Below are positions 30,022 to 57,320 of a stretch of DNA of 64,000 bases, piece by piece. How positions within the stretch are numbered: position 1 is the first letter of the stretch; the number at the start of each line of letters is the position of its first letter. Below the pieces are notes generated by a model that ran no database searches, was not told the origin of the DNA, and saw only the letters and a list, made by a program, of their open reading frames with translations. The stretch is from Candidatus Bathyarchaeota archaeon (GTDB lineage Archaea; Thermoproteota; Bathyarchaeia; 40CM-2-53-6): positions 303,441 through 367,440 of the forward strand of contig CAVWAQ010000001.1 of NCBI GenBank assembly GCA_963753065.1, in the 5' to 3' direction. The position numbers and the translations under genes are program-made.

Positions 30022-31042
30022 ATGAATGCCATAAAGTCGATTCAGACTGTTCCATATGCGGATTACACGAAGCATGGGATGACTAAGGATATTCTGCTCG
30101 GCATGCTTCGGAAGATGATCGAGATCCGAAGGTTCGAGGAGCGCGTGGAACGGCTATTCCTCCAAGAAGGGGCGCTCATTGGACCATCGCACCTCTATTT
30201 GGGAGAGGAGGCAGTCGCAGCTGGCGCTGTCGGTGCGCTCAACGATAATGACCTGATCACTAGTACTTATCGAGGCCACGGCCACGCTATCGCAAAAGGC
30301 GTTCCCATGAAGCCTCTGATGGCAGAGCTATTCGGGAAATCCACGGGCACCTGCAAAGGACTAGGCGGTTCAATGCATGTCGCGATCTATCCCGAAAAAG
30401 GATCCGTATATGCGACAGCGATTGTCGGAAGCGGAGTTCCAATAGCGACCGGCTTAGGGCTTGCGCTTCAGGACGGAAGGAAAACGGCGAGTCGCTATGA
30501 CGTTCTTTGGGGACGGTGCAACTAACACCGGCGCCTTCCACGAAGGAATCAACCTCGCATCCGTCTGGAAGGTCCCAGTCATCTTCGTCTGTGAGAACAA
30601 CATGTACGCTATGTCAACTCGAGCCGACTATGCAGTGGCAGCGGAAAGCGTTGCGGCTAGGGCGCAGACCTACAGGATGCAAAGTATGGTTGCTGATGGA
30701 AACGACGCGGTCGCGGTCTACTTGGCCGCCAAAGAAGCGATCGGTGCTGCTCGAAATGGTCAAGGTCCAACCCTTCTTGAATGCATGACCTACAAGCTCC
30801 ACGGCCATGGGGTCTACGACAAAGGTGACTACAGACCCAAGGAAGAGGTCGAAGCGTGGCTCAAGCGAGATCCTATCAACGGGCTTGAGGACAAGCTCCT
30901 GAAAGCAAAGTTGGCTACCCAAGCAGATTTCGACAAGATTGAGAAAGAGGTCGCGGCCGAAGTGGAAGAGTCTGTTTCATTCGCGAAAAACAGTCCCGTT
31001 CTGCCGTTCGATGAACTTGCGAAGTACGTGTACGCGAGGTAG
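30022..31042 (+). pseudogene. 2-oxoacid dehydrogenase E1 alpha subunit, frame shift at the A4 run 30481-30484
   Basis: ORF 30022..30525 (YRGHGHAIAKG...GLGLALQDGRK) and ORF 30461..31042 (RRVAMTFFGDGATNTGAFHEGINLASVWKVPVIFVCENN) join into one E1-alpha if one A is removed. Confidence 0.85.
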
Positions 31043-35337: not shown

Positions 35338-35737
35338 GTCTAGCTTCTCAGCTTGGATAAAGGAACCGCTTTTTCCTCCACATCCCCACATCTGCGGCTA
35401 TGAATGACATTTCATGGGTCAGTGACTTGAGGATTGGAGCTTGCTATCTGTCGCTTGGACCAATAGCGGTCAAACTACCGGGCTGGCACGCAAGCACACC
35501 GCCGGATTCCGGATCATCATCTGATCGGTCCGTCTGTCAGTCCATTTCGTTTCATCATTGGCACGATTGTCTTCAGGATGTGATCGTATCAATAACCGCC
35601 AAATCTTCTGGTGTACGTCCTTAAAATTGGGAAGAACCTATGAGTTACATTGGACCGAGACTTGCTTAATCGAGTGGCTCTCGCAAGCACTTGTGCATAT
35701 TGGTTCGGGGTTCGAGATCGGAGGTTGAGAAGAAGGG

Positions 35738-38095
35738 TTGAACGATAGAATCAAGAAGCTCCGAGAACAAAGCTTGAACGCCAAAGCTCGTCTCTCGACA
35801 GAAAGGGCGGAGCTGGTCACCGATTTCTATGGGCGTATTCGGGGCGTCTCAGCTCCGGTCCGCAGGGCTCTAGCTTTCAAGTACTTGATGGAAAACAAGA
35901 CGATCTGCATCAACGACGGAGAATTGATCGTGGGAGAGCGAGGACCATTTCCAAAAGCTGTCCCCACGTATCCAGAGCTATGCTGTCACAGCCTTCAAGA
36001 TCTGGGCATCCTCAGCGGCCGCTCGAAGGTGCCTTTCATTGTTAGCGCCGAGGATCGAGAAACCTACCAGAAGAGGATCATACCATTCTGGCAGGGGCAA
36101 TCGATGCGCGACATGATCTTTCAAGAGATGTCAGACGATTGGAAGGCTGCATACGAAGCGGGGATCTTCACAGAATTCATGGAACAACGTGCCCCGGGTC
36201 ACACGGTATTGGGCGACAAGATCTATCGCCAGGGGTTTCTCGATATCAAGGCTGACATTGAGAGAAGTTGGCAGAGTCTGGACTATCTTAACGACCCAGA
36301 GGCCTACGACAAGTGCGAAGAACTGAAGGCGATGTCCATTTGCGCAGACGCGATCATTCGTTTTGCTGTACGGCATGCTGAGAAAGCACAGGAGATCGCC
36401 AAAAGCGAGAACGATCCTCAGCGACATGAGGAGCTAGAGAAGATTGCGGACGTCTGCTCTCATGTCCCCTCGCATGCACCGCGCGATTTCTGGGAAGCCC
36501 TCCAATTCTACTGGTTTGTCCATCTGGGCGTCATCACTGAGCTGAATACTTGGGACTCATTCTCGCCTGGCCGCCTTGATCAGCACTTGTATCCATTCTA
36601 CAAGATGGGTCTTGAAGACGGGGGGCTTACTCCTGAGAAGGCGAGAGAGCTACTGGAATGTCTGTGGGTGAAGTTCAACAACCACCCCGCTCCGCCAAAG
36701 GTCGGCGTCACAGCCGCTGAGAGCGGAACATACAATGATTTCGCCGCTATCGATCTCGGTGGTCTCAGGCCAGATGGTTCCGACGGAGTGAACGAACTGA
36801 CCTACCTGATCCTTGACGTCATTGACGAGATGAGACTCATACAGCCATCGTCGAATGTTCAACTCTCCAAGAAGAGTCCTGACCGTATTCTGAAGAGGGC
36901 GTGTGAGATTGTCAGGCAGGGGTGGGGCCAGCCTTCGATCTTCAATGCGGATCTGGTCGTTGAGGAGCTTGTGCGTCAGGGAAAGTCGATTGAAGATGCC
37001 CGAACTGGAGGTACAAGCGGTTGTGTGGAGACCGGCTGTTTTGGCAAAGAAGCCTACATACTAACAGGATACTTCAATCTCGCAAAGGTCTTGGAGGTCA
37101 CGCTGAACAACGGACTGGATCCCCGTACGGGCAAGAGGATCAGTTTGCAGGCAGGAGATCCTTTGCACTTCGAGTCATTCGAGAACCTATTTGAGGCCTT
37201 CAGAAAACAGCTGAAGCACTTCGTTGATATCAAAGTCAAAGGAAACAACATCATCGAAAGACTGTACGCTAACCACATGCCTGCTCCCTTTCTTTCAACA
37301 CTCATCGACGACTGCGTGAAGCGAGGCAAGGACTACAACGACGGAGGCGCTCGATACAACTCATCCTACATAATGGGCGTGGGAATCGCCACATTAGCCG
37401 ATAGCCTAGCTGCCATCAAGTATCATGTCTTCGACGAGAAAGGACTTTCCATCACGACGCTCCTGCAGGCGCTCAAAGATGACTTCCAAGGTAACGAGAA
37501 GGTTTGCCTCTCGCTGTGGAACAAGACGCCGAAGTACGGCAACGATGACGACTACGCTGACGACCTGCTGAGAGCTGCGTTCAACATGTTCTATGATGAG
37601 ATCAATGGCAGAGGAAACACTCGAGGCGGGCTCTATCGAGTCAATTATCTTTCGACTACTTGCCATGTCTATTTTGGTGCTGTGACAGGCGCAACACCAG
37701 ACGGTAGGAGAGCTGGTGAACCTGTTTCTGAAGGCGTGTCGCCCGTGCAGGGTGCAGATCGCCATGGCCCCACGGCTGTGATCAAGTCGGTGGCCAAGAT
37801 GGATCAAGTTCGAACCGGCGGAACGCTCCTTAATCAGAAGTTCACCCCGATGTTGCTGGAGGGAGACCATGGCATTGAGGATCTCTCACATCTGGTCCGA
37901 GCCTACTTCAAGCTGGGTGGCCACCACATTCAATTCAACGTGGTAACCTCGGAGACTCTACGTGACGCTCAGGCAAACCCCGATAAGCACAGAGACCTTA
38001 TCGTCCGAGTCGCAGGCTACAGCGACTACTTCTGCGATCTCAACAAAACCTTACAGGACGAAATCATCGCCCGCACGGAACACAAATCCTACTGA
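35738..38095 (+). CDS. glycyl radical enzyme, PFL2 / glycerol-dehydratase-like (1,2-eliminase clade)
   Basis: C-terminal glycyl-radical motif LIVRVAGYSDYF...IIARTEH and thiyl loop GGTSGCVETG (Cys plus Glu, single Cys). 785 aa, collinear with B12-independent glycerol dehydratase as I remember that sequence. Confidence 0.9.
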   Translation: MNDRIKKLREQSLNAKARLSTERAELVTDFYGRIRGVSAPVRRALAFKYLMENKTICINDGELIVGERGPFPKAVPTYPELCCHSLQDLGILSGRSKVPFIVSAEDRETYQKRIIPFWQGQSMRDMIFQEMSDDWKAAYEAGIFTEFMEQRAPGHTVLGDKIYRQGFLDIKADIERSWQSLDYLNDPEAYDKCEELKAMSICADAIIRFAVRHAEKAQEIAKSENDPQRHEELEKIADVCSHVPSHAPRDFWEALQFYWFVHLGVITELNTWDSFSPGRLDQHLYPFYKMGLEDGGLTPEKARELLECLWVKFNNHPAPPKVGVTAAESGTYNDFAAIDLGGLRPDGSDGVNELTYLILDVIDEMRLIQPSSNVQLSKKSPDRILKRACEIVRQGWGQPSIFNADLVVEELVRQGKSIEDARTGGTSGCVETGCFGKEAYILTGYFNLAKVLEVTLNNGLDPRTGKRISLQAGDPLHFESFENLFEAFRKQLKHFVDIKVKGNNIIERLYANHMPAPFLSTLIDDCVKRGKDYNDGGARYNSSYIMGVGIATLADSLAAIKYHVFDEKGLSITTLLQALKDDFQGNEKVCLSLWNKTPKYGNDDDYADDLLRAAFNMFYDEINGRGNTRGGLYRVNYLSTTCHVYFGAVTGATPDGRRAGEPVSEGVSPVQGADRHGPTAVIKSVAKMDQVRTGGTLLNQKFTPMLLEGDHGIEDLSHLVRAYFKLGGHHIQFNVVTSETLRDAQANPDKHRDLIVRVAGYSDYFCDLNKTLQDEIIARTEHKSY

Positions 38096-38193
38096 CGAGC
38101 TCATTAAGAATGCCTGCGTCGGACTCATGTGCGAATCCGACAACGCGCTATGCCGAAATATCGACTGACTAATCTAATGTTCGACCGCGGTAT

Positions 38194-38649
38194 CTATTGT
38201 CCCAGACCTAGTGTGGTCTTGATTCGTTCGAAGATGGGCCTCGCGAAAGTTCCGGCCTCCAAACTCAGAACGATCGCATATTCCGGCGTTCTGAACAGCA
38301 TCAATGTGAGTTGCTGAAAACATAGGAGAGAGTATCTGATCTTGCCTAAGTCATCTTCCAGTTTCTGGGCCATTCCAAGTATCAAGTCGGGAATCAGTTC
38401 GATAAATTCTCGGACCTTGTCATCCGATCCACTCGACTCGAGACCCTGCCTCATGCGCGACACTTTGACATCATAGTCAGGGCCCTTGCTAACAACTCCG
38501 ACGTATCGTATGTTTTTGTCGACGGAGAAAATCGTATCGGCTATCTGTTCCGGGTCCATGGCGCAAGCGCCCCCATTGAGATCGATATAAACTCTCACAA
38601 GTTGCAGGTCCGTCTTGGGTTTTGCCCTGCAGGAATCAAGCAGGTTCAA
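38194..38649 (-). CDS. hypothetical protein, paralog of 44259..44678
   Basis: Shares IFSVDK(N/R)IRYV(G/T)V and a collinear remainder with the ORF at 44259..44678. No family recognised; a roadblock/LC7-like fold is only a guess. Confidence 0.45.
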   Translation of the reverse strand: MNLLDSCRAKPKTDLQLVRVYIDLNGGACAMDPEQIADTIFSVDKNIRYVGVVSKGPDYDVKVSRMRQGLESSGSDDKVREFIELIPDLILGMAQKLEDDLGKIRYSLLCFQQLTLMLFRTPEYAIVLSLEAGTFARPIFERIKTTLGLGQ

Positions 38650-38854
38650 GAAGAAGCGCGCGGAGATTTGTGCACCAATATGTCAGCGCCCATTGTCCCT
38701 TGCATAGATAGGATCGCTCAGCTGACACACAAGAGGATTGCGTCAACATCCGGCCTGTCTAGACATCAGAGGAACTAATACTGAGAGTCGATTGGTTGCT
38801 TGATGATGTAGAGAACTTGAGCCCGCTGCGCAACACGTTGAGAAGAAGTGTGGT

Positions 38855-39634
38855 TCAGGATTCAAGAGCCAGCAATGCGGCGCCAAGAGCACCTGTGATC
38901 TGCGGATTGTCGGGCATCCATAGTTCCGTGCTGAGCTGTTTCGACAAGTAGTATCGGAAAGCTGGATTCAGCGCCACACCTCCGGTGACACAGACGGGTG
39001 TGACAACACCGACGCGCTTCGAGAGTGTGCTGATCTTCGACGCCATGGCCGCATGGACTCCTGCCGCAATATCCTTTGGGCTTTCTCCCGCCCCGATCCG
39101 TCCAACTACCTCGCTTTCCGCAAAGACTGTGCAGGTACTGCTGATCATACAAGGCGAGTTGGACTGCAGAGCAAATGGACCTAGCTCGTTAATGGAAACC
39201 CCAAGGACCCGGGCCATGACTTCCAGGAACCTCCCGGTGCCGGCGCTACACTTGTCGTTGAGTTCGAAATCTGTTGGCCTACCGTTCTCGCCTACGCGGA
39301 TGACTTTTGAATCCTGACCACCAATATCAATCAAGAGGCGGATACTAGGATTCAGATGGTGCACGCCAATGCTATGGCACGTTATTTCAGTCACGGATTT
39401 CTCCGCGAAATCAATGAGAGATCGACCGTAGCCCGTGCTGATCGTAGGGGCATTCTTGGTGTCTGCACCAGATTCTCTGCTGAGCTCTCCCAGACATCTC
39501 ATTGCTGCACTAACTCCAGATGCTCCAGTAGGAACGACACGAGAGCCCAGGACGTTCCCCCTAGAGCCAACCACTACGGCTTTAGTGGTGCTTGACCCCA
39601 CATCAAGTCCGATTCCGAGACTTCGTCCTGACAC
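38855..39634 (-). CDS. BcrAD/BadFG-type ATPase, HgdC-like activator of 2-hydroxyacyl-CoA dehydratase
   Basis: GIGLDVGSSTTKAVV (actin-fold), KCSAGTGRFLE and SSTCTVFAESEV (cluster-bridging Cys positions), VTGGVALN. Confidence 0.85.
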   Translation of the reverse strand: MSGRSLGIGLDVGSSTTKAVVVGSRGNVLGSRVVPTGASGVSAAMRCLGELSRESGADTKNAPTISTGYGRSLIDFAEKSVTEITCHSIGVHHLNPSIRLLIDIGGQDSKVIRVGENGRPTDFELNDKCSAGTGRFLEVMARVLGVSINELGPFALQSNSPCMISSTCTVFAESEVVGRIGAGESPKDIAAGVHAAMASKISTLSKRVGVVTPVCVTGGVALNPAFRYYLSKQLSTELWMPDNPQITGALGAALLALES

Positions 39635-39648
39635 TGGTTTCTCTCCTG

Positions 39649-40863
39649 TTACTCGAACATCTCTAGCAGTGCGTCGATGCGTGTCTGAATCTGAGCCTCG
39701 TTGAAGAGACGACTGTCCACCATGTCGCCCTCGATCACTACGCCTGGCACACCCGTTGCCTCCGTGACGAGTTCCTTGGAAACCAGCTGCCCTAAGGAAT
39801 ATCGCTTGCAGGACCTGACTGAGAACATGACGAACCCGTCAAGATCATAATCCTTGATGAGCTCTACCATTTTGTCGACTTTTGCCTGGAGACCTTTGTT
39901 GAGGTATACATTGCTGTATATCGTGGCTGCGCTGTCGAAGAGGTCTTTTCCTTCAAGGGAGCCTGACCAGGCGTGAGTGTACGTGTCTGCAGGAAACACC
40001 ACGCCCCTCTTAGCTAATCCATTGAAGAATCTGAAGATGTTGAACCAAGGAGGTATATTGTCCCATAGCAGCCTAACCTTCTCATCCCTTATTGACCCGA
40101 TGCCCTGGGAAACGCGTTCCCGCACCTCATCATGCAACGCTTGGTAGAACTCGATGATGTGCTCTGTCCCTCTCATTGTCACTACAGGAGCCATAGTCGT
40201 GAACCTATCTGCGCAGTTGAGGGGGCTCGGCTTATTCTTGCAGGCTTCAAGTGACTTCGTCCAGAGACCTATTGCCTTGCTCGAGTTCGCAGCTACTTCT
40301 CTCAGCCTCTCCTCCTCGAGCGTGACAGTGAAGGTCTTTGACAAGAACTCGCCAAGGCGCTCAATGCCTCTTCGAACATAGGCTAGATGATGTGGTTGCT
40401 GCTCTCCCTCGATAGGCGGAGTGTCCAGAAGGAAGACTGGTGCACCTGTCATCTGTGAGATGGCATCATACCAGCGCAGGACTGTCCCACAAATGTTGTT
40501 GCAGGCTAGGAGGGCCTGCGGTTTCGGAAGTCCGTTCAAGGGGCTCTCTTCAGGCTTCCGCGTCGAACCAATACTCGAGCGGGCATAGGAACAGAGTTCT
40601 TGAGAGTACCCTAGCTCTTCTGCAAATCCGCAAATTGTCGGGCCAACCTTCTCCGCCCCCACCACCGCACCATACTGTTCGGGGTACGCGGACGTTACGC
40701 CCATGGCTAATGGTATCTCTACCGGAAATCCCGAGGTCACCCACGCAAGGCGGCCCTGCTCGCTAGCCGCATTACCCTCAAGCACATAGCGAAACAGTAC
40801 TTGCCGCAGAAGGTCCTGCGTCTTGAGAGGCCTGTATGCTTTCTCTTCCTTCCCGGAGCTCAT
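39649..40863 (-). CDS. 2-hydroxyacyl-CoA dehydratase / benzoyl-CoA reductase family subunit (HgdA/B, BcrB/C-like)
   Basis: About 404 aa with HGD-D family architecture and conserved Cys (LCSYARS, LACNNICGT). The start is taken at Met-40 of the listed ORF (MSSGKEEK), 10 nt after the upstream stop. Confidence 0.7.
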   Translation of the reverse strand: MSSGKEEKAYRPLKTQDLLRQVLFRYVLEGNAASEQGRLAWVTSGFPVEIPLAMGVTSAYPEQYGAVVGAEKVGPTICGFAEELGYSQELCSYARSSIGSTRKPEESPLNGLPKPQALLACNNICGTVLRWYDAISQMTGAPVFLLDTPPIEGEQQPHHLAYVRRGIERLGEFLSKTFTVTLEEERLREVAANSSKAIGLWTKSLEACKNKPSPLNCADRFTTMAPVVTMRGTEHIIEFYQALHDEVRERVSQGIGSIRDEKVRLLWDNIPPWFNIFRFFNGLAKRGVVFPADTYTHAWSGSLEGKDLFDSAATIYSNVYLNKGLQAKVDKMVELIKDYDLDGFVMFSVRSCKRYSLGQLVSKELVTEATGVPGVVIEGDMVDSRLFNEAQIQTRIDALLEMFE

Positions 40864-40873
40864 CTCGGTCGTC

Positions 40874-42238
40874 TTACCTCGTACCTCCTTCGAATGTTTC
40901 GAGGAATGATTGGATCCTTCCCTCCAGCCTGTTTCTATCAGACAGTTCAGGATCCATTGGCAATCGAACCGAGGGAACATTCACCTCTGATGCGGCCTTC
41001 AAAAGAGACGGAGCCTCGAACTGATCAGGGTCACAGAATGATTGCTCGCACACCACTAGCCCGTCGATCGAAAGTCGCGACAGGACGCCCTTGAGAAACT
41101 CAAGCCTCTCGGGGAGCCCTTCCTGTGTTGGTTCAGAAGGAGCGCCTAAGATAGATCTTGAGAGAGCAACAAACAGGTCGCCCTCCAGCTCAACCGGAGG
41201 CGTGAATACGGTCTTGAAACCGAAACTGAGCAAATCCAAGACAACAACCTCCCCACCAATTATCTCTGAGCCCTCGAACAAGGATGCAACTACCATCGGC
41301 TCCACCATGCCGCCCACGACCAAGATTCTCGGGATGCTCGATTCCACATCAATCCTGGTATCGCCCAGCGCCCCGCTCAGCAATTCCTTCCGCAGTGACT
41401 TCACTACAGTGAGTTGGCCTCTCTCGTCCAGAATCTGCGAAGCAGTATTAGCGGACTTGCTAATCTGAGCGACTGCGTCAGCACTTGGGATGGCCAAGAA
41501 CTGCCTTACCATCCGAGCCGCCTCGGAATAAGAGACAAGACTTGGATCTACGACTCTGCACGAATAGAGGGTTTGCGTGGCGTCTCTGAAATCGTTGACG
41601 AGAGATGCCGCGGCGGAAAGAGCGTCATTCGAGAGGGGGCGCCCGTATACGTCCTTCAGGCATTGACTGAGAATCCTCAATTCCTCTGCCAAGAATCGAA
41701 CCGAGTCGTCACTAGGTGTGGTCGCCGGATAGGTCAGTTTAAAGACCTTGTCTTCTGGGAAGCGGCGTCGCCACACATCTGACACATTGTGAAGCGAGTC
41801 GCATGTATTGCTGGGAAAGAGAAGGCCGCCAAGGAAAGGTAGTCCACCGTTTGAGCGTTGGCCGAACAAGTTTCTTGTGAGCGAGCACGAGAATGTCTGA
41901 AGACTCGCCTCGAATCCGCCCTGAACGCTCGGATTGGTCCATACTAGTGAAGGAGTGATTCCGTGGGCGAATATGAGTTCAAGCGGCGCATGCGGATACA
42001 TATAGCCAACTATCGTTCCTCCGCTCCCTGAGAGTTCCCTTAGCTGTTGTTCGAAATTCCCGAAAACCTCCCCGAACCTCAATTGGAACCCAGTCCTTTC
42101 TTGCGTTGGAGCTTCGACCGAACAGCGCTGCACGTCCGACAGCCAGCGTCTTATTCCTTGTGTTTTGGACCAGCGGCGAACGAGGTATTCTAGCAGAGCC
42201 CAGATTCCGAGTCCGTAGAAGGAATTATCAACAAGCAC
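40874..42238 (-). CDS. 2-hydroxyacyl-CoA dehydratase family subunit (second component)
   Basis: 454 aa. Family-like segments (IVGYMYPHAPLELIFAHGITP; FPSNTCDSLHN; VCEQSFCDP) and tight coupling to the downstream subunit. Confidence 0.65.
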   Translation of the reverse strand: MLVDNSFYGLGIWALLEYLVRRWSKTQGIRRWLSDVQRCSVEAPTQERTGFQLRFGEVFGNFEQQLRELSGSGGTIVGYMYPHAPLELIFAHGITPSLVWTNPSVQGGFEASLQTFSCSLTRNLFGQRSNGGLPFLGGLLFPSNTCDSLHNVSDVWRRRFPEDKVFKLTYPATTPSDDSVRFLAEELRILSQCLKDVYGRPLSNDALSAAASLVNDFRDATQTLYSCRVVDPSLVSYSEAARMVRQFLAIPSADAVAQISKSANTASQILDERGQLTVVKSLRKELLSGALGDTRIDVESSIPRILVVGGMVEPMVVASLFEGSEIIGGEVVVLDLLSFGFKTVFTPPVELEGDLFVALSRSILGAPSEPTQEGLPERLEFLKGVLSRLSIDGLVVCEQSFCDPDQFEAPSLLKAASEVNVPSVRLPMDPELSDRNRLEGRIQSFLETFEGGTR

Positions 42239-42310
42239 TGCGGAAACTATCGGACTGTTCTTCCTTGATTACTCTCTCAATCAGACCAAAGGGAGTTGTG
42301 ACGAAGTAAG

Positions 42311-44059
42311 ATGGACGAGTATCTTTGGCATAAACACAAGTGGCCTGCGGACGTTCCAAAAACGCTGGAATATCCAAAGGAACCGCTCTTTGCCATGCTT
42401 GATAGGTCCGCAGAGAAGAGCGGCAACCTGCCATACACGACGTGGGAGGGGCAAGCGTGGACCTTTTCACAGGTGAGGGATGATGCAAACCGGATTGCCA
42501 ACTTTCTGGCAAGTCGAGGCATAAAGAAGGGCGACAGAGTTGCCGTCTTTCTGCCGAATACCCCGCACTTTCCCCCAGTTCTATTTGGTTCTCTGAAGAC
42601 TGGAGCGACTGTCGTCACGTGCAACCCCATGTACAAGGCAGGGGAACTGAATTTCCAGTTGAAGGACTCAGGAGCACTTGCGGTCTTCGTGTTGGATCAC
42701 CCCGCATTCACACCAACCTGCTATGAGGCGATCAAGAACACAGCCGTCAAGACTGTGGTCGTGTGCAGTGCGAAGAACTTCCTGCCCAAGGCCAAGGCTG
42801 TGCTCGGAGGTCTTCTCGGGAAGATCCCGAAGAGCCCGTACTACCAGAAGGATGTGACATTCTTCTACGGGGATATCATGACCAAGAACGAGCCTGTAGC
42901 GCCCAAGGTCGACGTTGATCCTGACGACGTTGCCATGGTATTGTACACCGGAGGAACCACAGGCACACCTAAAGGCGCAGCTCTGAGCCACAGGAACCTC
43001 GTGTCCAACGTTCACCAAATCTACGAGTGGGTCAATCTAGCACCCGAGGACATCGACGCAGCAAAGAAAATCGAGTATGGGAAAGAAGTGTTCGTCGGGG
43101 CACTGCCATGGTACCACAGCTACGGTCTGACTTTGACACTGTTGATCAGCACAAACTACGCTGGCCAACTAGTATGCGTCCCAGATCCAAGAGCCGGCAA
43201 GCCACCATTGGCAGACCTGCTCAAGGCACTGGAGAGGTACAAGGGGACTATTTTCAATTGCGTGCCTGCTCTGTATGCAGGCGTAGTCAATCATCCAGAT
43301 GTGAAGAAGTACAATCTCAGATCCATCAAGATATGCAGCTCTGGAGCAGCACCTCTGCCGCCAGAACTTGCGAAGAGATTCGAGGAGGTGACCGGGGCGA
43401 TCCTGTTTGAGGGATACGGCCTAAGCGAAACATCTCCTGTGACCCACATCAACCCTACAAACAGAAGAGACCGCAAGTTCGGCTCAATCGGATTACCGAT
43501 CTCAGATACCGTCGCAAAGATACTTGATGTTGAGACGGGAACTAGGGAGATGCCTGTCAAGGAAACTGGCGAACTTGCAGTGCACGGACCGCAGGTAATG
43601 AAGGGATACTGGAACAAGCCACAAGAAACAGAGAACGTGATGAGAGAGATTGATGGCAGACGTTTCTTCCTGACCGGCGACATCGGGCACATGGACGAAG
43701 AAGGCTACTTCATCATCTCAGATCGCAAGAAACAGATGATAAACGTCGGAGGGCTGAAAGCCTACCCGCGCGAAATCGAGGACATGTTCTACGAGCATCC
43801 AAAAGTAAAAATGGTCGCCGCCGTCGGCATCCCACGAGAGGACGAACCGAGCAATGAGTTCGTCAAGGCATTCATCGTACTGAAAGACGGAGTGAAAGCA
43901 ACTCCAGAAGAGTTCATCGAGTGGGCACGAACCAGAATGGCAGGTTACAAGAGACCTAGAGAAGTCGAATTCAGAGACTCACTACCACTTAGTAATGTGG
44001 GGAAGGTACTACACAGAGTGCTCAAAGAAGAGGAACTGGAAAAGAGAACAGCAAAGTAG
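42311..44059 (+). CDS. AMP-forming acyl-CoA synthetase/ligase (long/medium-chain or aryl type)
   Basis: LYTGGTTGTPKGA (A3 motif), GYGLSETSP, TGDIG and the C-terminal lysine region PLSNVGKVLHRVL. Confidence 0.9.
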   Translation: MDEYLWHKHKWPADVPKTLEYPKEPLFAMLDRSAEKSGNLPYTTWEGQAWTFSQVRDDANRIANFLASRGIKKGDRVAVFLPNTPHFPPVLFGSLKTGATVVTCNPMYKAGELNFQLKDSGALAVFVLDHPAFTPTCYEAIKNTAVKTVVVCSAKNFLPKAKAVLGGLLGKIPKSPYYQKDVTFFYGDIMTKNEPVAPKVDVDPDDVAMVLYTGGTTGTPKGAALSHRNLVSNVHQIYEWVNLAPEDIDAAKKIEYGKEVFVGALPWYHSYGLTLTLLISTNYAGQLVCVPDPRAGKPPLADLLKALERYKGTIFNCVPALYAGVVNHPDVKKYNLRSIKICSSGAAPLPPELAKRFEEVTGAILFEGYGLSETSPVTHINPTNRRDRKFGSIGLPISDTVAKILDVETGTREMPVKETGELAVHGPQVMKGYWNKPQETENVMREIDGRRFFLTGDIGHMDEEGYFIISDRKKQMINVGGLKAYPREIEDMFYEHPKVKMVAAVGIPREDEPSNEFVKAFIVLKDGVKATPEEFIEWARTRMAGYKRPREVEFRDSLPLSNVGKVLHRVLKEEELEKRTAK

Positions 44060-44258
44060 AAGGACACGTCCCACCCTCTCCGCTTTGCCTATCGGCCGAA
44101 ACCTCGTACTTGTCTCGCCCAAGCAGTCTTAGACAGTGCGAAGTGGGACACGCATATCATCATACGGTGCAAATCACGCCACTCACAGTGGCGGCGGGCC
44201 TGCAATGAGCACCAACTATTATAACTGGACTTCAGGCGCCTGAGCCCCTGAACCGCTC

Positions 44259-44678
44259 TTGGCAAACATGCTTTATACTTGCACTACAGCGGATTGCAGT
44301 ACAGCGCTGACGGTGATGAACTACCAGCAGCTCTGTAACCGGATCTTCTCGGTCGATAAGCGGATCAGGTATGTTACGGTGGCCGATGGCAAGTGCAAGA
44401 TTTTGGCCGGAGGGATGCGGCCTGGCGTCGCACCATTGGAAGCGAGTACTAAGGAGGCGGAGAAGATCGACCTTCAGGTGGCGGTCCTGGGTGGCGTCAT
44501 GGAATCATGGGCTGAGTCTCTAGGGCGCGCGAGATTCGCGTTGATACAACACGAGAGAGCGTACATGCTGATAGTTCCATTCGACGACAAACGCCTTGAG
44601 CTTTCAATCGAGACAAGCACGTCCATTCAGCAGATTGGCAGAATACTTACTGCAATTGAGAATGCTATTCGTCAGTGA
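44259..44678 (+). CDS. hypothetical protein, paralog of 38194..38649
   Basis: NRIFSVDKRIRYVTV... is collinear with the 38194..38649 product. The start may be the ATG at 44268. Confidence 0.45.
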   Translation: MANMLYTCTTADCSTALTVMNYQQLCNRIFSVDKRIRYVTVADGKCKILAGGMRPGVAPLEASTKEAEKIDLQVAVLGGVMESWAESLGRARFALIQHERAYMLIVPFDDKRLELSIETSTSIQQIGRILTAIENAIRQ

Positions 44679-44894
44679 TTGAAGCAAACACAAAGTTGCT
44701 GGCGAGTGAGGCCACTAGCAGACTGCCCGCAGGAACTTCATGCCACAACTCAACAAGGAATGGGGCCTCCCTTGGCGAGGCATTATTCTGCGCATGCGCA
44801 CAGCCCCTTGGGATAGACCATGCAATGCCCACAGAAGCCAGACAGGCCTCTGCCCTTGAGCAACTCTCGCGATTTCGCCTGCCCGACAGGTTGC

Positions 44895-45125
44895 TTACTG
44901 CTTAGCTCCGCACTTTGGACAGAAGCTAGCGCTTCCGTAGAGTTCGGCTCCACAGTTCGTACAGAACCTCTTCTCTCCTGCAGACGGAGCGACTGCGGGG
45001 ACGGGCACCGCGCCCACTGGCGCCGCACCGGACTTGATTACGACCGTTTTCGCGATTCTATCGCCGAGCCGTTGCTTCTCATCCGATCGCGACATGAAGA
45101 TCAAGCCGATGAAGCAACAACACAA
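44895..45125 (-). CDS. small zinc-ribbon protein
   Basis: C-terminal FCTNCGAELYGSASFCPKCGAKQ (CxxC...CxxC). The N-terminal part resembles only the tail of an RDD-type domain. Confidence 0.4.
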   Translation of the reverse strand: MCCCFIGLIFMSRSDEKQRLGDRIAKTVVIKSGAAPVGAVPVPAVAPSAGEKRFCTNCGAELYGSASFCPKCGAKQ

Positions 45126-45221
45126 CTCATTCTACTATTCTGTTGTATGATTCATAGGTACTGGGTAGTATATTCGACTTGGGCATGATGTGTTTGTGTG
45201 CGTGCTGTTATGTGTGAATGC

Positions 45222-45794
45222 CTATTCACTGATACCGAATGTGATTCTGAGGCCGTGTTCCTCGATGAATGCCAGTTCAGACTGGGAGAGGGTTGGATAT
45301 TTCTTGAGAAACTCTTTGATGATGAAGTCAGTGTCCTGTGATAGAAACTTTCGCCAGATGAATGGGCTAAGTACGACATAGAGGAAGGCAATCCCAAAAA
45401 CAGCCGCTATTAGCACCATTGTTGCTGGCTCTAGCTTCAGCGTGCTCACGAACCAAGGCACTTGAATAGATTGCAGATAATCCATTACTTGCATATACGA
45501 GAAGACCGACGTTAGCAAGGAGATACCGCCAAGTACAACCCCGTTCCACCGTTTCGTCACTGCTTGTCCCATTAGGTAGAGTAGTGACATGAGTAACCAT
45601 ACGATGAGCGAATAACGAATCGGAGACATCATGTCTCCGACAAATGGGCTGAGGGGCAAGTCGAATAGTGCCCCCCACAAAGAGATCACATAGACACCAA
45701 ACACGAATACTGCGAAGGCGTATCCCATGAGATATAGCGACGATATTACACCAAGGACATCCCGCAGAGTTGAGATGGAACTCACTTTGGCCAA
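45222..45794 (-). CDS. integral membrane protein, hypothetical
   Basis: 190 aa with about 5 hydrophobic spans, in an A+T-richer stretch. Confidence 0.4.
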   Translation of the reverse strand: MAKVSSISTLRDVLGVISSLYLMGYAFAVFVFGVYVISLWGALFDLPLSPFVGDMMSPIRYSLIVWLLMSLLYLMGQAVTKRWNGVVLGGISLLTSVFSYMQVMDYLQSIQVPWFVSTLKLEPATMVLIAAVFGIAFLYVVLSPFIWRKFLSQDTDFIIKEFLKKYPTLSQSELAFIEEHGLRITFGISE

Positions 45795-46088
45795 GCAGAA
45801 GACCTCTGGTTAGGAAACCGCGGTCTGGTCTTTAGGCATTTGCGCATGTCTGCTGACTTGATAGGGTCTGGTGGCCCGCCGCGCTTCATTATAACCCAAA
45901 AACGCTCTAAACAGCAACTAAGAGGGGACACCGCAGGTTCAGATTAGATTTCCTTTGGTGTCATACCACTCCAATTTGGTGTCACTATTTGAGCGTCGTT
46001 GGAGGAATTGGCTGGCATCATGAGTTTCTTTGATAGCGGCTGAGTTCAAGACTGCGGCTTCGGAGTGGTCGTAACCTATAGGGGCTAT

Positions 46089-46373
46089 CTACCGCTTCTT
46101 GCCCGATTTTTCAAACTCCATTTCAAAGTGAATGGGACTCCCAACGTCGTCGATAAGCAATATGAAACGCCACGTCTCGTCACGTAGCCCCATCTCCGCA
46201 AGAAATTTCCCCTTTGTTTTCCACAGCGCCTTGTCTTCGTCATAAAAGGCACCCGTCAGATTGAGTTCCTTCGGTGCGAAGTGTTCTTTCACGTACTTTC
46301 TTGCCGCCTCTTGAATCTCCTCGATCGGGCGAATCGGAGTACCTTCCAACAGACTGCACTCCTTGAAGCTCAT
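46089..46373 (-). CDS. hypothetical protein
   Basis: 94 aa ORF immediately downstream of the integrase on the same strand. No motif recognised. Confidence 0.35.
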   Translation of the reverse strand: MSFKECSLLEGTPIRPIEEIQEAARKYVKEHFAPKELNLTGAFYDEDKALWKTKGKFLAEMGLRDETWRFILLIDDVGSPIHFEMEFEKSGKKR

Positions 46374-46469
46374 CTGGACACGTTAGCCATTATAACCTTG
46401 CGGCAGAGCCTATAACAGTTCACAATCTGGGCAGCCTCATGGCAAACGTGTGGGTCAAGCATGAGGTTC

Positions 46470-47366
46470 TCATTTTCTCTTGCGGAACAACTTCAGGCCT
46501 TCGACATCGGTGACATATTCGAAACCGCTTTCGACCAAGTCTTTTGCCTCTTCGACTGTCTTTGCCACTTTGCAGATGAACTGATCACTTTCGTTGTTGA
46601 TCAAGTGAGTGTAAACGAGCGTGTTCTGTATGTTTCTATGGCCCAGCATTTGCATGACATGGAGGATATCTTTGGTTTTCTGATACTCCATCGTCGCCTT
46701 GAAGTGGCGTAGGGTCTTGAAGCTTATGCGCAGCATCTGTGGGTTCTGTAGTTTCTCAGCGATCTTTCTTCTTTGTGCGCTGAAGTTGCGGCTGAAGTCA
46801 TCCAGCGACTCGGACTTGTCGATTGCGGGATTGCGAAGGACATACTCTGAGCGGTGCGGCAAGTGATCTAGCATCATGACGAGTGAGCTTGTGATTTTCA
46901 AGCGCCTTGCTCTACTGCCTTTCTCGGGCGTAATTGTGGCGGTTCCTTGCTGAGAGTTGATGTCAACCCATCTAATGTTCCATGCCTCACCAGCGCGAGC
47001 GCCAGTCTCCTTCAATAGTTGAAGGTAGACAGCGGTCTTTTTGCCGACACCAGGAATTAGCTGATCAACTTCGCTCTCCATTGGGATGAATGGGAGCGTG
47101 TCAACAGCCACATAGTGGGGCTTGTCGAATGGAATCCGCTTGTACGTGTAGAACCTAGCCATGTGTTGAACAAGAATCGCCTTGCGCGCCTCGCTCAGTT
47201 TCGCGCCAGCCAAGTACGCTTTGACCGATTCAGGATTCAGCAAATCCGCCCGTCTAGCCAGACCCTTCAGAGACCGTACGCAAGCCCTGATGGTTGAGTC
47301 CTTGTATCCCTGTTTCATCATCCATGAGGCAAATGACAGAATCTCGCCAAGTGCTCCAGACGACAA
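46470..47366 (-). CDS. tyrosine recombinase / site-specific integrase
   Basis: ETGARAGEA (Arg I), LRHFKAT, GHRNIQNTLVYTH (His/Arg II ... Tyr). The C-terminal GFEYVTDVEGLKLFRKRK tail is typical of archaeal integrases as I remember them. The start lies 20 nt from the tRNA 3' end. Confidence 0.85.
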   Translation of the reverse strand: MSSGALGEILSFASWMMKQGYKDSTIRACVRSLKGLARRADLLNPESVKAYLAGAKLSEARKAILVQHMARFYTYKRIPFDKPHYVAVDTLPFIPMESEVDQLIPGVGKKTAVYLQLLKETGARAGEAWNIRWVDINSQQGTATITPEKGSRARRLKITSSLVMMLDHLPHRSEYVLRNPAIDKSESLDDFSRNFSAQRRKIAEKLQNPQMLRISFKTLRHFKATMEYQKTKDILHVMQMLGHRNIQNTLVYTHLINNESDQFICKVAKTVEEAKDLVESGFEYVTDVEGLKLFRKRK

Positions 47367-47385
47367 CGGTGGATTTGTCGAAAAG

Positions 47386-47539
47386 TGCGGGGGGTGGGAT
47401 TCGAACCCACGAAGGCCTACGCCGCAGGATCTCTCATCCCGAGGCGGATCTTAAGTGTGGCACGACTCAGAGTGGTCGTCCTGCCCCTTTGACCTGAATC
47501 CCGCCCACATCGTATCGTACGGGTCTCGGGAACCCCCGC
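47386..47539 (-). tRNA. tRNA-Leu (anticodon UAA), 154 nt gene with about three intervening sequences
   Basis: Hand fold. Acceptor GCGGGGG/CCCCCGC plus A73. T-arm GTGGG-TTCGAAT-CCCAC. D-arm CCCG..AGGG with GG. Anticodon arm CAGGA-CTTAAGA-TCCTG, assembled only after removing inserts at about 47498-47524, 47456-47478 and 47431-47449. Long variable arm. CTTTT follows the 3' end. Confidence 0.8.
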
Positions 47540-47565
47540 TCGTATCTGCTAGGATACTAGTTTGG

Positions 47566-47573
47566 CTAAAAAC
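47566..47573 (-). promoter_or_regulatory. TATA-like box for tRNA-Leu
   Basis: GTTTTTAG on the minus strand, centred about 31 nt upstream of the tRNA 5' end. Confidence 0.3.
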
Positions 47574-47623
47574 TTGTCATGGCGAACCTCAGCTCGTGGC
47601 CACATGCGGCGTGTTCTGAGCAA

Positions 47624-47631
47624 ACTATATG
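47624..47631 (+). promoter_or_regulatory. TATA-like box for the plus-strand tRNA
   Basis: ACTATATG, centred about 31 nt upstream of the tRNA 5' end at 47659. Confidence 0.3.
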
Positions 47632-47658
47632 ATGGCACAGAGGCTAGTCTCGTCGCGT

Positions 47659-47828
47659 GGGCCCGTGGCGCAGTCTCGCAGGTTGACGCCTGCTAGGCGA
47701 AATACGGACAGCGCGGCAGATAGGCCTCTTGGGCTAGCCGAGCCTCCTAAGCAAACCGCGGAACCAGCTGTAGAGTGCGTCCAAAACGCACGCAAAAGTC
47801 CGGGGTTCAAATCCCCGCGGGCCCGCCA
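47659..47828 (+). tRNA. tRNA, probably Arg (anticodon CCU), 170 nt gene with encoded CCA and about four intervening sequences
   Basis: Hand fold. Acceptor GGGCCCG/CGGGCCC, G73, CCA. T-arm CGGGG-TTCAAAT-CCCCG. D-arm GCGC-AGTCTGGACA-GCGC after removing 47677-47705. The local GCCTCCTAAGC (anticodon at 47746-47748) is completed by the distal GCA/TGT stem halves. Variable loop AG/GTC flanks 47774-47797. Confidence 0.7.
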
Positions 47829-47841
47829 TCCCCGACTCTGT

Positions 47842-49161
47842 CTATTCAGATGGCATGCGCCTGATTCGAGTGATGATCTCGTCTAGGGTCAGGGTTTCCT
47901 CTGTGCGTTTCTTCATGTCTCTGAGCTTGAACTGGCCGGATTTGAGTTCTTGAGGGCCGACGATCAAAGCATAGGGAATACCCAGCGAGTTTGCGTACTC
48001 AAGCTGTTTTGCCAGCGACTTGCGCTTAACATCCACATCTGAAGCGATTCGAGCGTCACGAAGCTTAGCTGCAATCGAGAGTGTATGCTGTCTAACTCAT
48101 CATTCACCGCGGCCACGAACACAGTCCCAACTTCTTTGTGCTTGGGAAGTACGCCGGCCTTCTCCAGTGAAATCAGCAGTCTCTCGACACCTCCGGCAAC
48201 TCCTGTCGCTGGAATGCTCCTTTTTCCATAGACGCCGCAGAGTCTGTCGTATCTTCCTCCTCCAAGCACCGCTCCAACCTCTTCTCCTCCTTTGTCGAAT
48301 GCCTCGAAGACGATGCCATCGTAGTATCCGATACCCCTAACGACACTCATGTCGAATAGGCAACGATCCAGTTTGCCTAGACCTTGCAGCGCGTCAGCCA
48401 GCAGCGACGAGTTGCCTGTATCCCAGTTTTGCTTCCTCGCTTCGTGTTTGCACTTCAGAGATCTTCTCGAGAACGCTGGCAGGTTTATCCTGGATCGATA
48501 TGAATTCAACCAGTGAATCAGTGACGCTGCTCTCTAGGCCCGCGGAAAGAAGCTCGGTCTTGACAGCCTCAGCAGAGATCTTTCGAGACTTGTCGACTGT
48601 TCGGAACACTGCCTCGATTTTCTCTTGACTCTTCAACCCCAAGCTTTCGACGAATCCCTGTATGACTTTACGATTCGAGATTCGCACTTCGAATTCCTTC
48701 AACCCAACGTTGCTTAGAATGTCCATGCTTAGGGCGACGGCTTCTGCGTCAGCTGTTGGGTCATCGGATCCGAAGATCTCCGCGTCCCATTGAGTGAAGT
48801 ACCTGTATCGGCCAAATTGTGGTTCATCATATCGCCAGTTTCCGCCAATACACGCGAACTTGATTGGTTCAGGGAGGTCGGAGCGACCAGCTACCATGCG
48901 AGCCATACCGACCGTGAGGTCGAACCTGAGGCCGATGCTGCGGCCTGCCTTGTCGTTAAACCAGTAGATCTCATCCTTGATCGCCGGTCCACTCTTGGCT
49001 TCTAGGGTTCTGAGTTCCTCAAGCGTCGCGGGTTCCATTTCTTGAAAGGCGTATCTTCGAAACATCTCTCTTATTCTCTCGTAGACCCAGTTTCGCTTCG
49101 CCATCTCATCTGGCTCGATATCCCTGATACCTCTCGGCAAGGTGAACTGCTTGTCTGACAT
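47842..49161 (-). pseudogene. hisS: histidine--tRNA ligase, broken by two frame shifts (near 48395-48440 and near 48085-48095)
   Basis: Three consecutive ORFs carry collinear HisRS parts. The first has LPRGIRD...RFDLTVGMARM...WRYDEPQFGRYRYFTQWDAEIFG. The second has FDMSVVRGIGYYDGIVFEAF...GGGRYD...IPATGVAGGVERL. The third has the anticodon-binding end (KRKSLAKQLEYANSLGIPYALIVGPQEL). My hand translation of the third frame bridges the second gap (VRQHTLSIAAKLRDARIASDVDVK). Confidence 0.85.
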
Positions 49162-49294
49162 GCCGCTCGCCCCTATGCTAGTACGATCCGCTAATTCATT
49201 CCGAGGTGTGCTAAGTGTTTTCTTTCGATTCGGTCGCACCACGGCTTATTAGGGGGGAGCAGCAGGTTTCCTAGACTCCTGTCAGGATGCGTGA

Positions 49295-49911: not shown

Positions 49912-50451
49912 CTAGACTCTGAGGAATTCAAGTGAATAGTAGACGATGTCAGTTCGTCTGTCAACCACGGCGAGTATCAGGTCTTTCTTGTCCCTGGAGG
50001 CTCGTTTCAGCAGTGTGCGAAGCGTCTTGAGGTCGGCTTCACCGCCTTCGTAGATTATGTAGACGTACCTTCGCATCGGTCCCTTTCCGTGGACCTCGAA
50101 ATCGAAAACGGGGCATTCTCTGACAACATATCCTCTGTCGCGGAGGTCGCGATATACGAGGTACTTCACCCAGACTGCAGGTTGCCTCGTAGAAACCGAC
50201 TTCACCAGTTCCTCGAATGTGATGTTCTCTTTGTTCTTTCCCTCGACGGTAATCCTGCCCTTTTCGAGAAGATAGAAGGCCTCGTGAGATGTGAGAACGA
50301 GTCTTCTTCCCTTCAGCGTTCCGAAACCGCGCTCACGCATCTCCATCAGTTCTGAGGCTCTCGGAAGGAAAACTTCGCCTGCTCGCAGGGAAGCTTCGTA
50401 GACCTGGAATGGCTTCTCGCTCTCCGACTCATTCGCTGTGTGCTCAGTCAC
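49912..50451 (-). CDS. endA: tRNA-splicing (intron) endonuclease
   Basis: 179 aa. YLVYRDLRDRGYVV, FEVHGKG and KKDLILAVVD fit the Tyr/His/Lys catalytic triad context of archaeal EndA. Confidence 0.8.
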   Translation of the reverse strand: MTEHTANESESEKPFQVYEASLRAGEVFLPRASELMEMRERGFGTLKGRRLVLTSHEAFYLLEKGRITVEGKNKENITFEELVKSVSTRQPAVWVKYLVYRDLRDRGYVVRECPVFDFEVHGKGPMRRYVYIIYEGGEADLKTLRTLLKRASRDKKDLILAVVDRRTDIVYYSLEFLRV

Positions 50452-50529
50452 GTGCAGTCAATCCGAGGCCATCTACGCCGACCTTGCACTTTTAATGTAA
50501 TCGCGCCACGCACTACAGTGGCGTCACAT

Positions 50530-51586
50530 ATGGTTGACCTTACGACTCTGAGGACTGTAGAATGGACTCGTGACGGTGTGCGACTAATTGATCAGAGGCA
50601 GCTGCCAAACCGGCTGACATTTCTCTTGTGCAGGAACTACAGGCAAGTCGCTCGAGCGATACGCGACATGACCGTGAGAGGGGCGCCCGCCATCGGAGTG
50701 ACCGCGGCGATGGGCTTGGCCCTGGCAGCAAAACGCAGCAGACACAGCGACGGAAAGATGCTATTGCTCGACGTTGAGAAAGCCGCAGAGATCATCCGAG
50801 CGACACGACCCACCGCGAGAAACCTGTTCTGGGCGGTCGAGCGAATGCTCGGGAAAGCCCGAGAGGCGGCTGATCAGGGACGTGACATGCGAGAAACGCT
50901 CGCGGCTGAAGCACAGCTCATGGCCGATGAAGACGTGCAAGCCAACCGGAAGATGGGAGCCTACGGCGCAGAGCTGATTCAAGACGGGGATACGATCCTA
51001 ACGCACTGTAACACAGGCACGATGGCCACGGTGAGCTATGGAACGGCCTTAGGAGTAATCCGAAGTGCGATCTCGCAAGGCAAGAAAGTCAAACTCATCG
51101 CAACCGAAACTAGGCCTAGACAGCAAGGTGCCAGAATAACTGTCTATGAGGCTTTATCAGACAAGATCCCCGACGACCTTGATAGTTGATAGTGCTGTCG
51201 CGATCACGATGTCAAGAGGCATGGTAGACAAGGTCATCGTGGGCGCCGATCGCATAACTAGGACTGCAGTCGCCAACAAGGTGGGCACTTTCATGATCGC
51301 GCTCGCAGCCAAACATCATAGTATTCCATTCTACGTTGCGGCACCTACTACAACCTTCGACCTGACCATAGAGCCCACTGCCATGTCGATCGAAGAACGT
51401 GATCCCAGGGAAGTCACTGAGATTAACGGAAGGCAAATCACACCAAAGAAGGGGGTCAGGGTTTTCAATCCAGCCTTCGACTTGACTCCGTTAGAACTCG
51501 TCACCGCCGTCATCACAGAAAAAGGAGTCCTTTCAAGAGAACAGATTCAGAACATGACCAAGATCAGACCGAATACTGGCGGTTAG
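50530..51586 (+). pseudogene. eIF-2B alpha/beta/delta-family isomerase (MtnA 5-methylthioribose-1-P isomerase or ribose-1,5-bisphosphate isomerase), frame shift at the C4 run 51168-51171
   Basis: ORF 50440..51189 (LIDQRQLP..., RGAPAIGV, THCNTG, ETRPRQQGARIT) and ORF 51146..51586 (TTLIVDSAVA...VGADRI...ANKVGT...PFYVAAP) fuse as ...DKIPTTLIVDSA if one C is removed. The start is taken at the ATG at 50530. Confidence 0.8.
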
Positions 51587-56873: not shown

Positions 56874-57050
56874 TCACATCCAATTCATGCTGGGGTATCT
56901 CGGTTCGGGATTCGACACTTAGTGTCGAACGTTGTGCGCACTGGACCCCCGCCCCGCTAAATAGTTCGCCCTATTCTCAACCTCAGGCGCAGTCATGTCT
57001 CCGCATTTAGACTAGCTACGAAACGCACTTAAGCTCGGCCGAGAGACCGC

Positions 57051-57320
57051 ATGACGCCTTCAAGGTCGGGATATCTTTTGGCACAGACTATGCAGCAAAA
57101 ATCCCTAGTTAGGATTCTTGAAGAGCGCTGCAAGGGGTGCGAACTCTGCGTGCTGGCGTGCCCTCAAGGCAACCTTGCTCTATCTGACAGATTGAACAAG
57201 ATGGGCTTCCACCCTGCGGTGTGGCGCTACGCGGGCACGAAAGGGCCTTGCACTGCATGCGGGATCTGTTACTGGGTGTGTCCGGACTTCGCCATACACG
57301 AGGTCTTGGTGAGGACCTGA
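57051..57320 (+). CDS. 2-oxoacid:ferredoxin oxidoreductase delta subunit (2x[4Fe-4S] ferredoxin-like)
   Basis: CKGCELCVLACP and CTACGICYWVCP. The start may be the ATG at 57091. Confidence 0.75.
   Translation: MTPSRSGYLLAQTMQQKSLVRILEERCKGCELCVLACPQGNLALSDRLNKMGFHPAVWRYAGTKGPCTACGICYWVCPDFAIHEVLVRT

Follow-up and report, generated by a model that had tools for sequence, protein, structure and literature searches.

The DNA considered here is a stretch of 64,000 nucleotides (nt) from a Candidatus Bathyarchaeota archaeon (assembly GCA_963753065.1, contig CAVWAQ010000001.1, positions 303,441 to 367,440), and is referred to below as the window. Near its middle lies hypD, a gene for a glycyl radical enzyme, preceded by the remains of a gene for its radical S-adenosylmethionine (SAM) activase and followed by genes for a 2-hydroxyacyl-CoA dehydratase-type (Hgd) system and an acyl-CoA ligase. 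The features of this region, with window coordinates and strand, are listed here.

35627-35728 (+): activase-gene stump, non-coding, consisting of the last 33 codons and the stop; recognised by direct comparison with the closest activases.
35738-38095 (+): hypD, glycyl radical enzyme of 785 amino acids (aa), TTG start; Pfam PFL-like, 775 bits, and Gly_radical, 127 bits.
38194-38649 (-): orf151, small open reading frame (ORF) of 151 aa with no Pfam or NCBIfam match.
38855-39634 (-): HgdC/HadI-type ATP-dependent activator, 259 aa; Pfam BcrAD_BadFG and TIGR00241 'acyl-CoA dehydratase activase'.
39649-40980 (-): alpha-type (HadB/HgdA-like) subunit, longest ORF 443 aa; Pfam HGD-D (PF06050), 223 bits.
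40874-42238 (-): beta-type (HadC/HgdB-like) subunit, longest ORF 454 aa; Pfam HGD-D (PF06050), 132 bits.
42311-44059 (+): AMP-forming acyl-CoA ligase, 582 aa, divergent from hgdB; Pfam AMP-binding and AMP-binding_C.
44259-44678 (+): orf139, small conserved ORF of 139 aa, 3' of the ligase, with no Pfam match.

The hypD and hgdC genes are convergent, with a gap of 760 nt between them, and therefore do not form one operon. An initial annotation, made from the letters of the window without database searches, had named an HgdC-type activator, two HgdA/B-like subunits and a divergent AMP-forming ligase at this position, and the Pfam and NCBIfam matches confirm all of them.

The same annotation described the 785-aa protein as a glycyl radical enzyme of the eliminase clade. 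The gene and its motifs are as described, by Pfam and by alignment: the glycyl radical loop, RVAGYSDYF, contains Gly760, and the thiyl loop, SGCVETG, contains Cys429 and Glu431. The choice of family was right but too vague, as an equivalog hidden Markov model (HMM) and the functional residues both identify the protein, by homology, as an orthologue of trans-4-hydroxy-L-proline dehydratase (HypD). Against the NCBIfam HypD equivalog, NF043068, it scores 1321.6 bits, with a cut-off of 1100, over profile positions 1-783 of 784. Among solved structures C. difficile HypD ranks first (PDB 6vxc, 1111 bits over residues 3-782), and the next enzyme is glycerol dehydratase, at 577 bits. Fourteen catalytic or substrate-binding residues were defined in C. 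difficile HypD by structure and mutagenesis (PMC7077986), namely the HypD-specific Phe152, Arg156, His160, Trp277, Asp278, Lys326, Ser334, Asp339, Phe340, Tyr450 and Thr645, together with Cys434, Glu436 and Gly765. All 14 are kept in the window enzyme, each at position n-5, and likewise in the related loci L001, L008 and L009. In the mechanism proposed for the window enzyme, a radical-SAM activase would install the radical on Gly760, from where it would pass to Cys429. The latter would abstract a hydrogen atom from hydroxyproline, water would be eliminated with the help of Asp273, His155 and Glu431, and pyrroline-5-carboxylate would be released.

Glycyl radical enzymes had been thought in the initial annotation to be rare in archaea. 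HypD homologues are in fact common in archaeal metagenome bins, and a report of 2018 already described HypD in archaeal genomes (PMC6219649). Bathyarchaeia homologues at 74-75% identity are already named HypD in several public sources, although the gene is mostly labelled 'formate C-acetyltransferase' in the sources, and a confident HypD call can now replace that label here. A separate gene in the window, at 52846-53964(-), matches the Pfam family 'HypD', which is a hydrogenase maturation protein. It lies beside HypF (54603-56738) and is unrelated to the hydroxyproline dehydratase despite the shared abbreviation.

An activase gene had been reported missing from the 64 kb, and three kinds of search agree with that report. 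When all stop-to-stop segments of at least 80 aa were searched for the CxxxCxxC motif there were two matches, both in alternative frames overlapping ABC-permease genes. Comparison of three HypD activases with the whole window by tblastn gave a best E value of 0.13, ie no activase. An HMM built from 69 HypD activases, run with filters off against the six-frame translation, matched solely at 57033-57317, which is the ferredoxin subunit of a 2-oxoacid:ferredoxin oxidoreductase. The last two tests are independent of reading frame, which is relevant as the assembly has frameshifts elsewhere. No ORF within the 64 kb has an N-terminal CxxxCxxC motif together with similarity to HypD activases.

What had been overlooked is the stump of the activase gene directly 5' of hypD. 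The frame ending at 35726-35728 reads LGRTYELHWTETCLIEWLSQALVHIGSGFEIGG followed by the stop codon, and the corresponding C-terminus of the activase in L011, the nearest activase-bearing relative, reads LGRTYELLEVKAPSSEQISQTVDRFVRFGLKVKIGG and stop. The Smith-Waterman score between the two is 48, a value equalled by none of 5000 shuffles. The window belongs to a clade of seven sequences (the window and six distinct contigs, with HypD identities to the window of 85-90%), and in one of these, L001, the stump is better preserved, with a score of 98, also equalled in 0 of 5000 shuffles, and is detected clearly by tblastn at the same position. Copies with the same position and the same 5' limit occur in L008, L151 and L152 (tblastn E values of 8e-11 to 4e-10, 56-62% identity). 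The stump is thus significant in five clade members, while in L009 it is no longer recognisable by tblastn or by direct comparison. The full-length activase HMM did not detect the window stump, which was seen only by comparison with the closest activases.

The stump ends with IGG and the stop codon 10 nt before the start of hypD, as do intact activases. In the same genome pairs the DNA of the stump is 71-74% identical and that of hypD 84-88%. The stump diverges faster than hypD, and is therefore decaying. Its last bases, TCGGAGGTTGA, are retained. They include GGAGGT at 35720-35725, which represents two former glycine codons, lies 12 nt before the TTG and is, from its sequence and position, the predicted Shine-Dalgarno element (ribosome-binding site) of hypD. 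The presence of the stump indicates that the activase is absent here because its gene was truncated. On this account the ancestral order would have been activase-hypD, a rearrangement would have cut the activase and left its last 34-40 codons, and the tail of the stump would have survived because it holds the ribosome-binding site of hypD.

The hypD locus was compared with 90 related loci, ie 91 sequences with the window, scored by tblastn. An activase lies directly 5' of hypD in 66 of the 91, typically ending 2-10 nt before it, and in four others (L023, L028, L030 and L035) it lies 1.4-7.8 kb from hypD. In seven loci from outside the window's clade (L153, L016, L026, L039, L043, L075 and L076), 1 kb or more of upstream sequence contains no activase. 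Eight were uninformative, five because the contig end was too near hypD (the clade member L008 among them) and three because the activase was partial. The loci that have Hgd neighbours and lack an activase are the window, L001/L002, L008, L009, L151 and L152, and Hgd genes were found near hypD in no locus outside this clade. In a neighbour-joining tree this clade is monophyletic and is embedded among archaeal HypDs that have an activase; the activase was therefore lost once, as a derived event. Across the HypD loci as a whole, hypD has been parted from its activase on several occasions. In L153 (82% HypD identity) a gene of the Asp/Glu-racemase family, beside a peptide ABC transporter, occupies the place of the activase.

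The hypD gene itself is intact and conserved. The 785-codon frame is intact in 7/7 clade sequences, and the pairwise ratio of nonsynonymous to synonymous divergence (dN/dS) within the clade is 0.09-0.12 at dS 0.5-0.9, comparable with the 0.13 of the activase-bearing pair L011/L012. The region of the glycyl radical loop, RDLIVRVAGYSDYFCDL, is identical to that of the relatives, and at columns at least 80% conserved in activase-bearing HypDs there is no clade-specific substitution. These values indicate that hypD has been held by purifying selection since the activase was truncated. From the intact frame and the purifying selection we infer that HypD is activated in trans, by an activase whose gene lies elsewhere in the genome. 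Cross-activation between glycyl radical enzymes with identical glycine loops is documented (review PMC13450708, section 2.5), and this, with the four loci that have a distant activase and the seven with none upstream, makes activation in trans plausible. No directly relevant case emerged when the literature was searched for glycyl radical enzymes that lack a co-localised activase. The initial annotation had remarked that the neighbouring genes encode, in place of an activase, the other oxygen-sensitive paradigm of radical dehydration; a truncated gene points to activation in trans and not to a different activation chemistry.

The three Hgd proteins resemble the HadBC/HadI system most closely among solved structures. 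The activator scores 238 bits against TIGR00241 (cut-off 125), its best structure is HadI (4eht, 222 bits), and its Cys128 and Cys167 align with Cys127 and Cys166 of HgdC (1hux). In HgdC these are the cysteines that bridge the cluster. The best structure for the alpha subunit is HadB (3o3m_A, 195 bits) and for the beta subunit HadC (3o3m_B, 64 bits). Scores against the specific models were below the cut-offs: 238 bits for the alpha subunit with the HadB model NF052455 (cut-off 750) and 65 bits for the beta subunit with the HadC model (cut-off 700), and all the FadD-like subfamily matches of the ligase were also below theirs. A CoA transferase was not found among the window ORFs of at least 116 aa and several shorter ones. 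The ligase would make the thioester, HgdC would spend ATP on passing an electron to the HgdAB iron-sulfur enzyme, and HgdAB would dehydrate or reduce the acyl-CoA; the substrate is probably a thioester derived from a 2-oxo or 2-hydroxy acid. The two HGD-D ORFs overlap by 107 nt, which is probably an effect of choosing the longest ORF. Homologues of the alpha subunit align only from about residue 45, and its true start is likely to be Met40 at 40863, giving 404 aa and no overlap with the next gene; the beta subunit is likely to start near 42133, giving about 419 aa, as in the gene call of L151.

Related genes in Asgard archaea have been annotated as benzoyl-CoA reductases (PMC8163825). That reading was considered for the window genes and rejected, as there is only one ATPase gene and the scores with the BcrA/D/B/C and BzdQ/O/N models are 42-158 bits against cut-offs of 313-578. 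The initial annotation had already argued that a single ATPase fits a 2-hydroxyacyl-CoA dehydratase and not a benzoyl-CoA reductase, and its argument holds.

A scan of species-representative genomes with the alpha subunit gave 63 loci, 62 archaeal and one bacterial. Identities are 85-97% in Bathyarchaeia bins and 63-79% in Thor-, Hermod-, Prometh- and Odinarchaeota; the single bacterial locus, in Spirochaetes, is at 34%. HgdB, HgdA and HgdC adjoin one another wherever the contig permits, most of the 62 archaeal loci also show HgdB, and one ATPase gene is present in 57 of the related loci as in the window. Members of the ligase family occur in 35 of the 62, frequently right beside hgdB and divergent from it, as in the window, and ligases at 62-97% identity adjoin HgdB in many loci of Asgard archaea and Bathyarchaeia. 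A 2-oxoacid:ferredoxin oxidoreductase, represented by its alpha, beta, gamma and ferredoxin subunits, and a hexapeptide-repeat transferase are the commonest other neighbours, occurring in 18-31 of the 62. In Asgard archaea (loci L090-L148, within 10 kb of HgdBAC) the oxidoreductase subunits are what usually accompanies the module. Neither HypD nor an activase was found within 10 kb in the 62 archaeal HgdA/HgdC loci. By gene content, therefore, the ligase/HgdB/HgdA/HgdC module is old and self-contained. Asgard archaea and Bathyarchaeia have retained it widely, often with the 2-oxoacid:ferredoxin oxidoreductase.

The way in which hypD came to adjoin this module can be followed in part from the relatives. 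L088, a contig from an uncultured Bathyarchaeia bin, shares 91% DNA identity with the Hgd region of the window. Its match runs from window position 44709 back to 38842, a little beyond the hgdC stop, after which L088 enters a gene for an MttB-family methyltransferase. In L151 and L009 the same methyltransferase gene lies immediately 5' of hypD. L088 and L151 align at 94% identity as far as L151 position 9730 and at 91% from 13112 on, with the two breakpoints 26 bp apart in L088; a 3.38-kb segment holding the activase stump, hypD and the small ORF is thus present in L151 and absent in L088. L088 was at first read as the ancestral 'empty site' into which hypD was inserted, and this reading has been softened. 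The flanks of L088 are nearer those of L151 (91-94%) than are those of L009 (about 82%), yet L009 has hypD, and for that reason a secondary deletion in L088 is no less likely than an ancestral empty site. The window and L001 have undergone a further deletion, of the genes that lay between the second alcohol dehydrogenase and the stump. Taken together, the comparisons indicate that hypD and the Hgd module were brought together by a recent local rearrangement, that they adjoin in one narrow Bathyarchaeia clade only, and that theirs is not a conserved partnership.

In the older arrangement the MttB-family gene is uninterrupted and divergent beside hypD (L151 8215-9669(-), L009 5191-6660(-)); the copy in L088 is at 5940-7403. 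The window lacks that copy, and has a paralogue, 38-39% identical, at 6401-7837(+), with a URO-D-like gene at 5174-6124(-), 29 kb upstream. A route in which a betaine of hydroxyproline or proline is demethylated to feed HypD would make more sense chemically than a link with the Hgd genes. L088 has the methyltransferase and no hypD.

The account that we consider probable is that two separate, known anaerobic systems stand side by side, HypD with its adjacent activase truncated and its activation in trans, and an independent Hgd module that is not transcribed with it. Several observations weigh against it. The adjacency persists in the clade to a dS of about 0.9 (window versus L009), and so lasting a linkage may bring some selective benefit. 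The absence of hypD from L088 shows that the gene is dispensable, and would also fit a gene on its way out. For this genome the search for an activase covered the window, and none was found in those 64 kb; and three housekeeping genes of the window are frameshifted, so that the quality of the assembly is imperfect. That hypD is indeed a non-functional orphan, never activated and heading for loss, seems unlikely. The truncated activase, the lack of another in 64 kb and the absence of the hypD segment from the close relative L088 would be explained, but such a gene would hardly keep its frame in all seven sequences, a dN/dS of 0.09-0.12 up to dS 0.9, its 14 functional residues, its glycine loop and its ribosome-binding site.

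The initial annotation had proposed that the glycyl radical enzyme and the Hgd system are paired, perhaps in one pathway. The pairing was not upheld by the comparison of neighbourhoods, in which Hgd genes stand beside hypD in the window's clade only: 62 Hgd loci are without HypD, 66 of 91 HypD loci have their own activase, the genes are convergent, and a near-identical relative has no hypD at the same site. In its specific form the proposal would have hypD and the Hgd module act one after the other in a single fermentation route of this clade, which we regard as improbable. The adjacency in all seven clade sequences speaks for it, as do genes upstream for a 2-oxoacid dehydrogenase, two Zn-dependent alcohol dehydrogenases, an aminotransferase and an amino-acid permease; set against these are the convergent transcription, the occurrence of each system without the other, with L088 keeping the module alone at the same site, and the fact that the product of HypD is not a 2-hydroxyacyl-CoA. 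Such a route would run, for example, from hydroxyproline by way of pyrroline-5-carboxylate and a 2-oxo or 2-hydroxy acid to an acyl-CoA and its dehydration, and neither of the enzymes that would link the two systems, a pyrroline-5-carboxylate dehydrogenase and a 2-hydroxyacid dehydrogenase of the usual family, was found beside the genes. That the HgdC-type ATPase, or some other system not of the radical-SAM type, took over activation of the glycyl radical can be given practically no weight. The 760 nt between the genes and the lack of a radical-SAM gene in the window would suit it, but HgdC is strictly tied to HgdA/HgdB in 57 loci without a glycyl radical enzyme, the glycine loop is unchanged from that of activase-served relatives, and formation of the glycyl radical requires abstraction of a hydrogen atom by the 5'-deoxyadenosyl radical (PMC6219649), which is not the chemistry of an electron-injecting ATPase. 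A combined version, in which the clade long kept HypD (dS to about 0.9) without a dedicated activase in the genome, using a non-cognate activase, one that serves a different glycyl radical enzyme, or another route, and in addition recruited it beside the Hgd genes for a single hydroxyproline or proline fermentation, is very improbable.

A new pairing of radical enzymes, or a glycyl radical enzyme independent of an activase, would have mattered, and the evidence supports neither. The HypD assignment points to anaerobic use of hydroxyproline by Bathyarchaeia in sediments and peat. The locus is also a clean natural case of a glycyl radical enzyme parted from its activase and still under selection, and could be used in tests of cross-activation, the specificity of activases being poorly studied (PMC13450708).

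The two small ORFs on either side of the Hgd module, orf151 and orf139, are paralogues (28% identity, BLASTP E value 2e-11) with the common motif IFSVDKxIRYV. orf151 was found in L008, L009 and L151 and not in L001 or L152, and orf139 is kept in the Bathyarchaeia loci L088 (86%) and L112 (64%). Elsewhere in the window there are typical archaeal genes, for a tRNA-splicing endonuclease, an aIF-2B-family protein and a DUF5518 protein. Together with the 91% DNA identity of the Hgd region to L088, they make a Bathyarchaeia archaeon the most likely source. Three genes are each split into two overlapping ORFs, at 30022-31042, 47964-49242 and 50440-51586, encoding the E1-alpha subunit of a 2-oxoacid dehydrogenase, histidyl-tRNA synthetase and an IF-2B-family protein. 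The frame of E1-alpha changes near 30470 in an A/G-rich run, and the L001 orthologue is intact (337 aa). Since histidyl-tRNA synthetase is essential, the three frameshifts are probably assembly indels rather than marks of pseudogenes.

A tyrosine-recombinase (Phage_integrase) gene is present at 46470-47366(-), with several small ORFs of no assigned function between the ligase region and the histidyl-tRNA synthetase gene (44700-47900). L001 carries DUF169, CMD and dodecin genes in place of the integrase region. An integrated element may account for the interval 44700-47900; a search of the window for tRNA genes gave none, and so there is no mark of an integration site near the integrase. The window also holds a RuBisCO-large-subunit-like protein beside an FGGY kinase and a small lipoyl/biotinyl-domain protein, and a fused E1 alpha-beta 2-oxoacid dehydrogenase of 673 aa in addition to the split E1/E2 set (these together entered at 27318-28724(+), 25357-26979(+) and the region of 16060-18081(+)).

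Of the known systems, C. difficile HypD (6vxc) is the closest solved relative of the glycyl radical enzyme. The alignment is full-length without large gaps, the glycine loop and the Cys-x-Glu loop are the same, and so are all the HypD-specific residues listed above. The window enzyme differs in its archaeal host and in having the adjacent activase reduced to a stump. Clostridial hypD operons also carry a pyrroline-5-carboxylate reductase gene (PMC6219649), and none lies near hypD in the annotation of the window. Archaeal loci with an activase (such as L003, which is Bathyarchaeia GCA_052326285.1, and L010-L013) show 74-81% identity, the same 785 aa and an identical glycine loop. In them the activase stop lies 2-10 nt before hypD, where the window has only a 34-codon remnant, and their surroundings are related to proline and peptides (proline racemase, AcnX, a prolidase-type peptidase and peptide ABC transporters), whereas those of the window are not.

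For the Hgd module the nearest known system is HadBC/HadI of C. difficile (3o3m, 4eht), which provides the best solved relatives of all three proteins and shares with them the single ATPase and the cluster cysteines of the activator. The module differs in that its equivalog scores are far under the cut-offs, a CoA ligase replaces the CoA transferase, and its closest relatives are in Asgard archaea. The class I benzoyl-CoA reductases (BcrABCD, BzdNOPQ, MbdONQP) belong to the same superfamilies, with 104-206 bits to BzdO, MbdO and MbdQ, but have two ATPase genes, compared to one in the module of the window.

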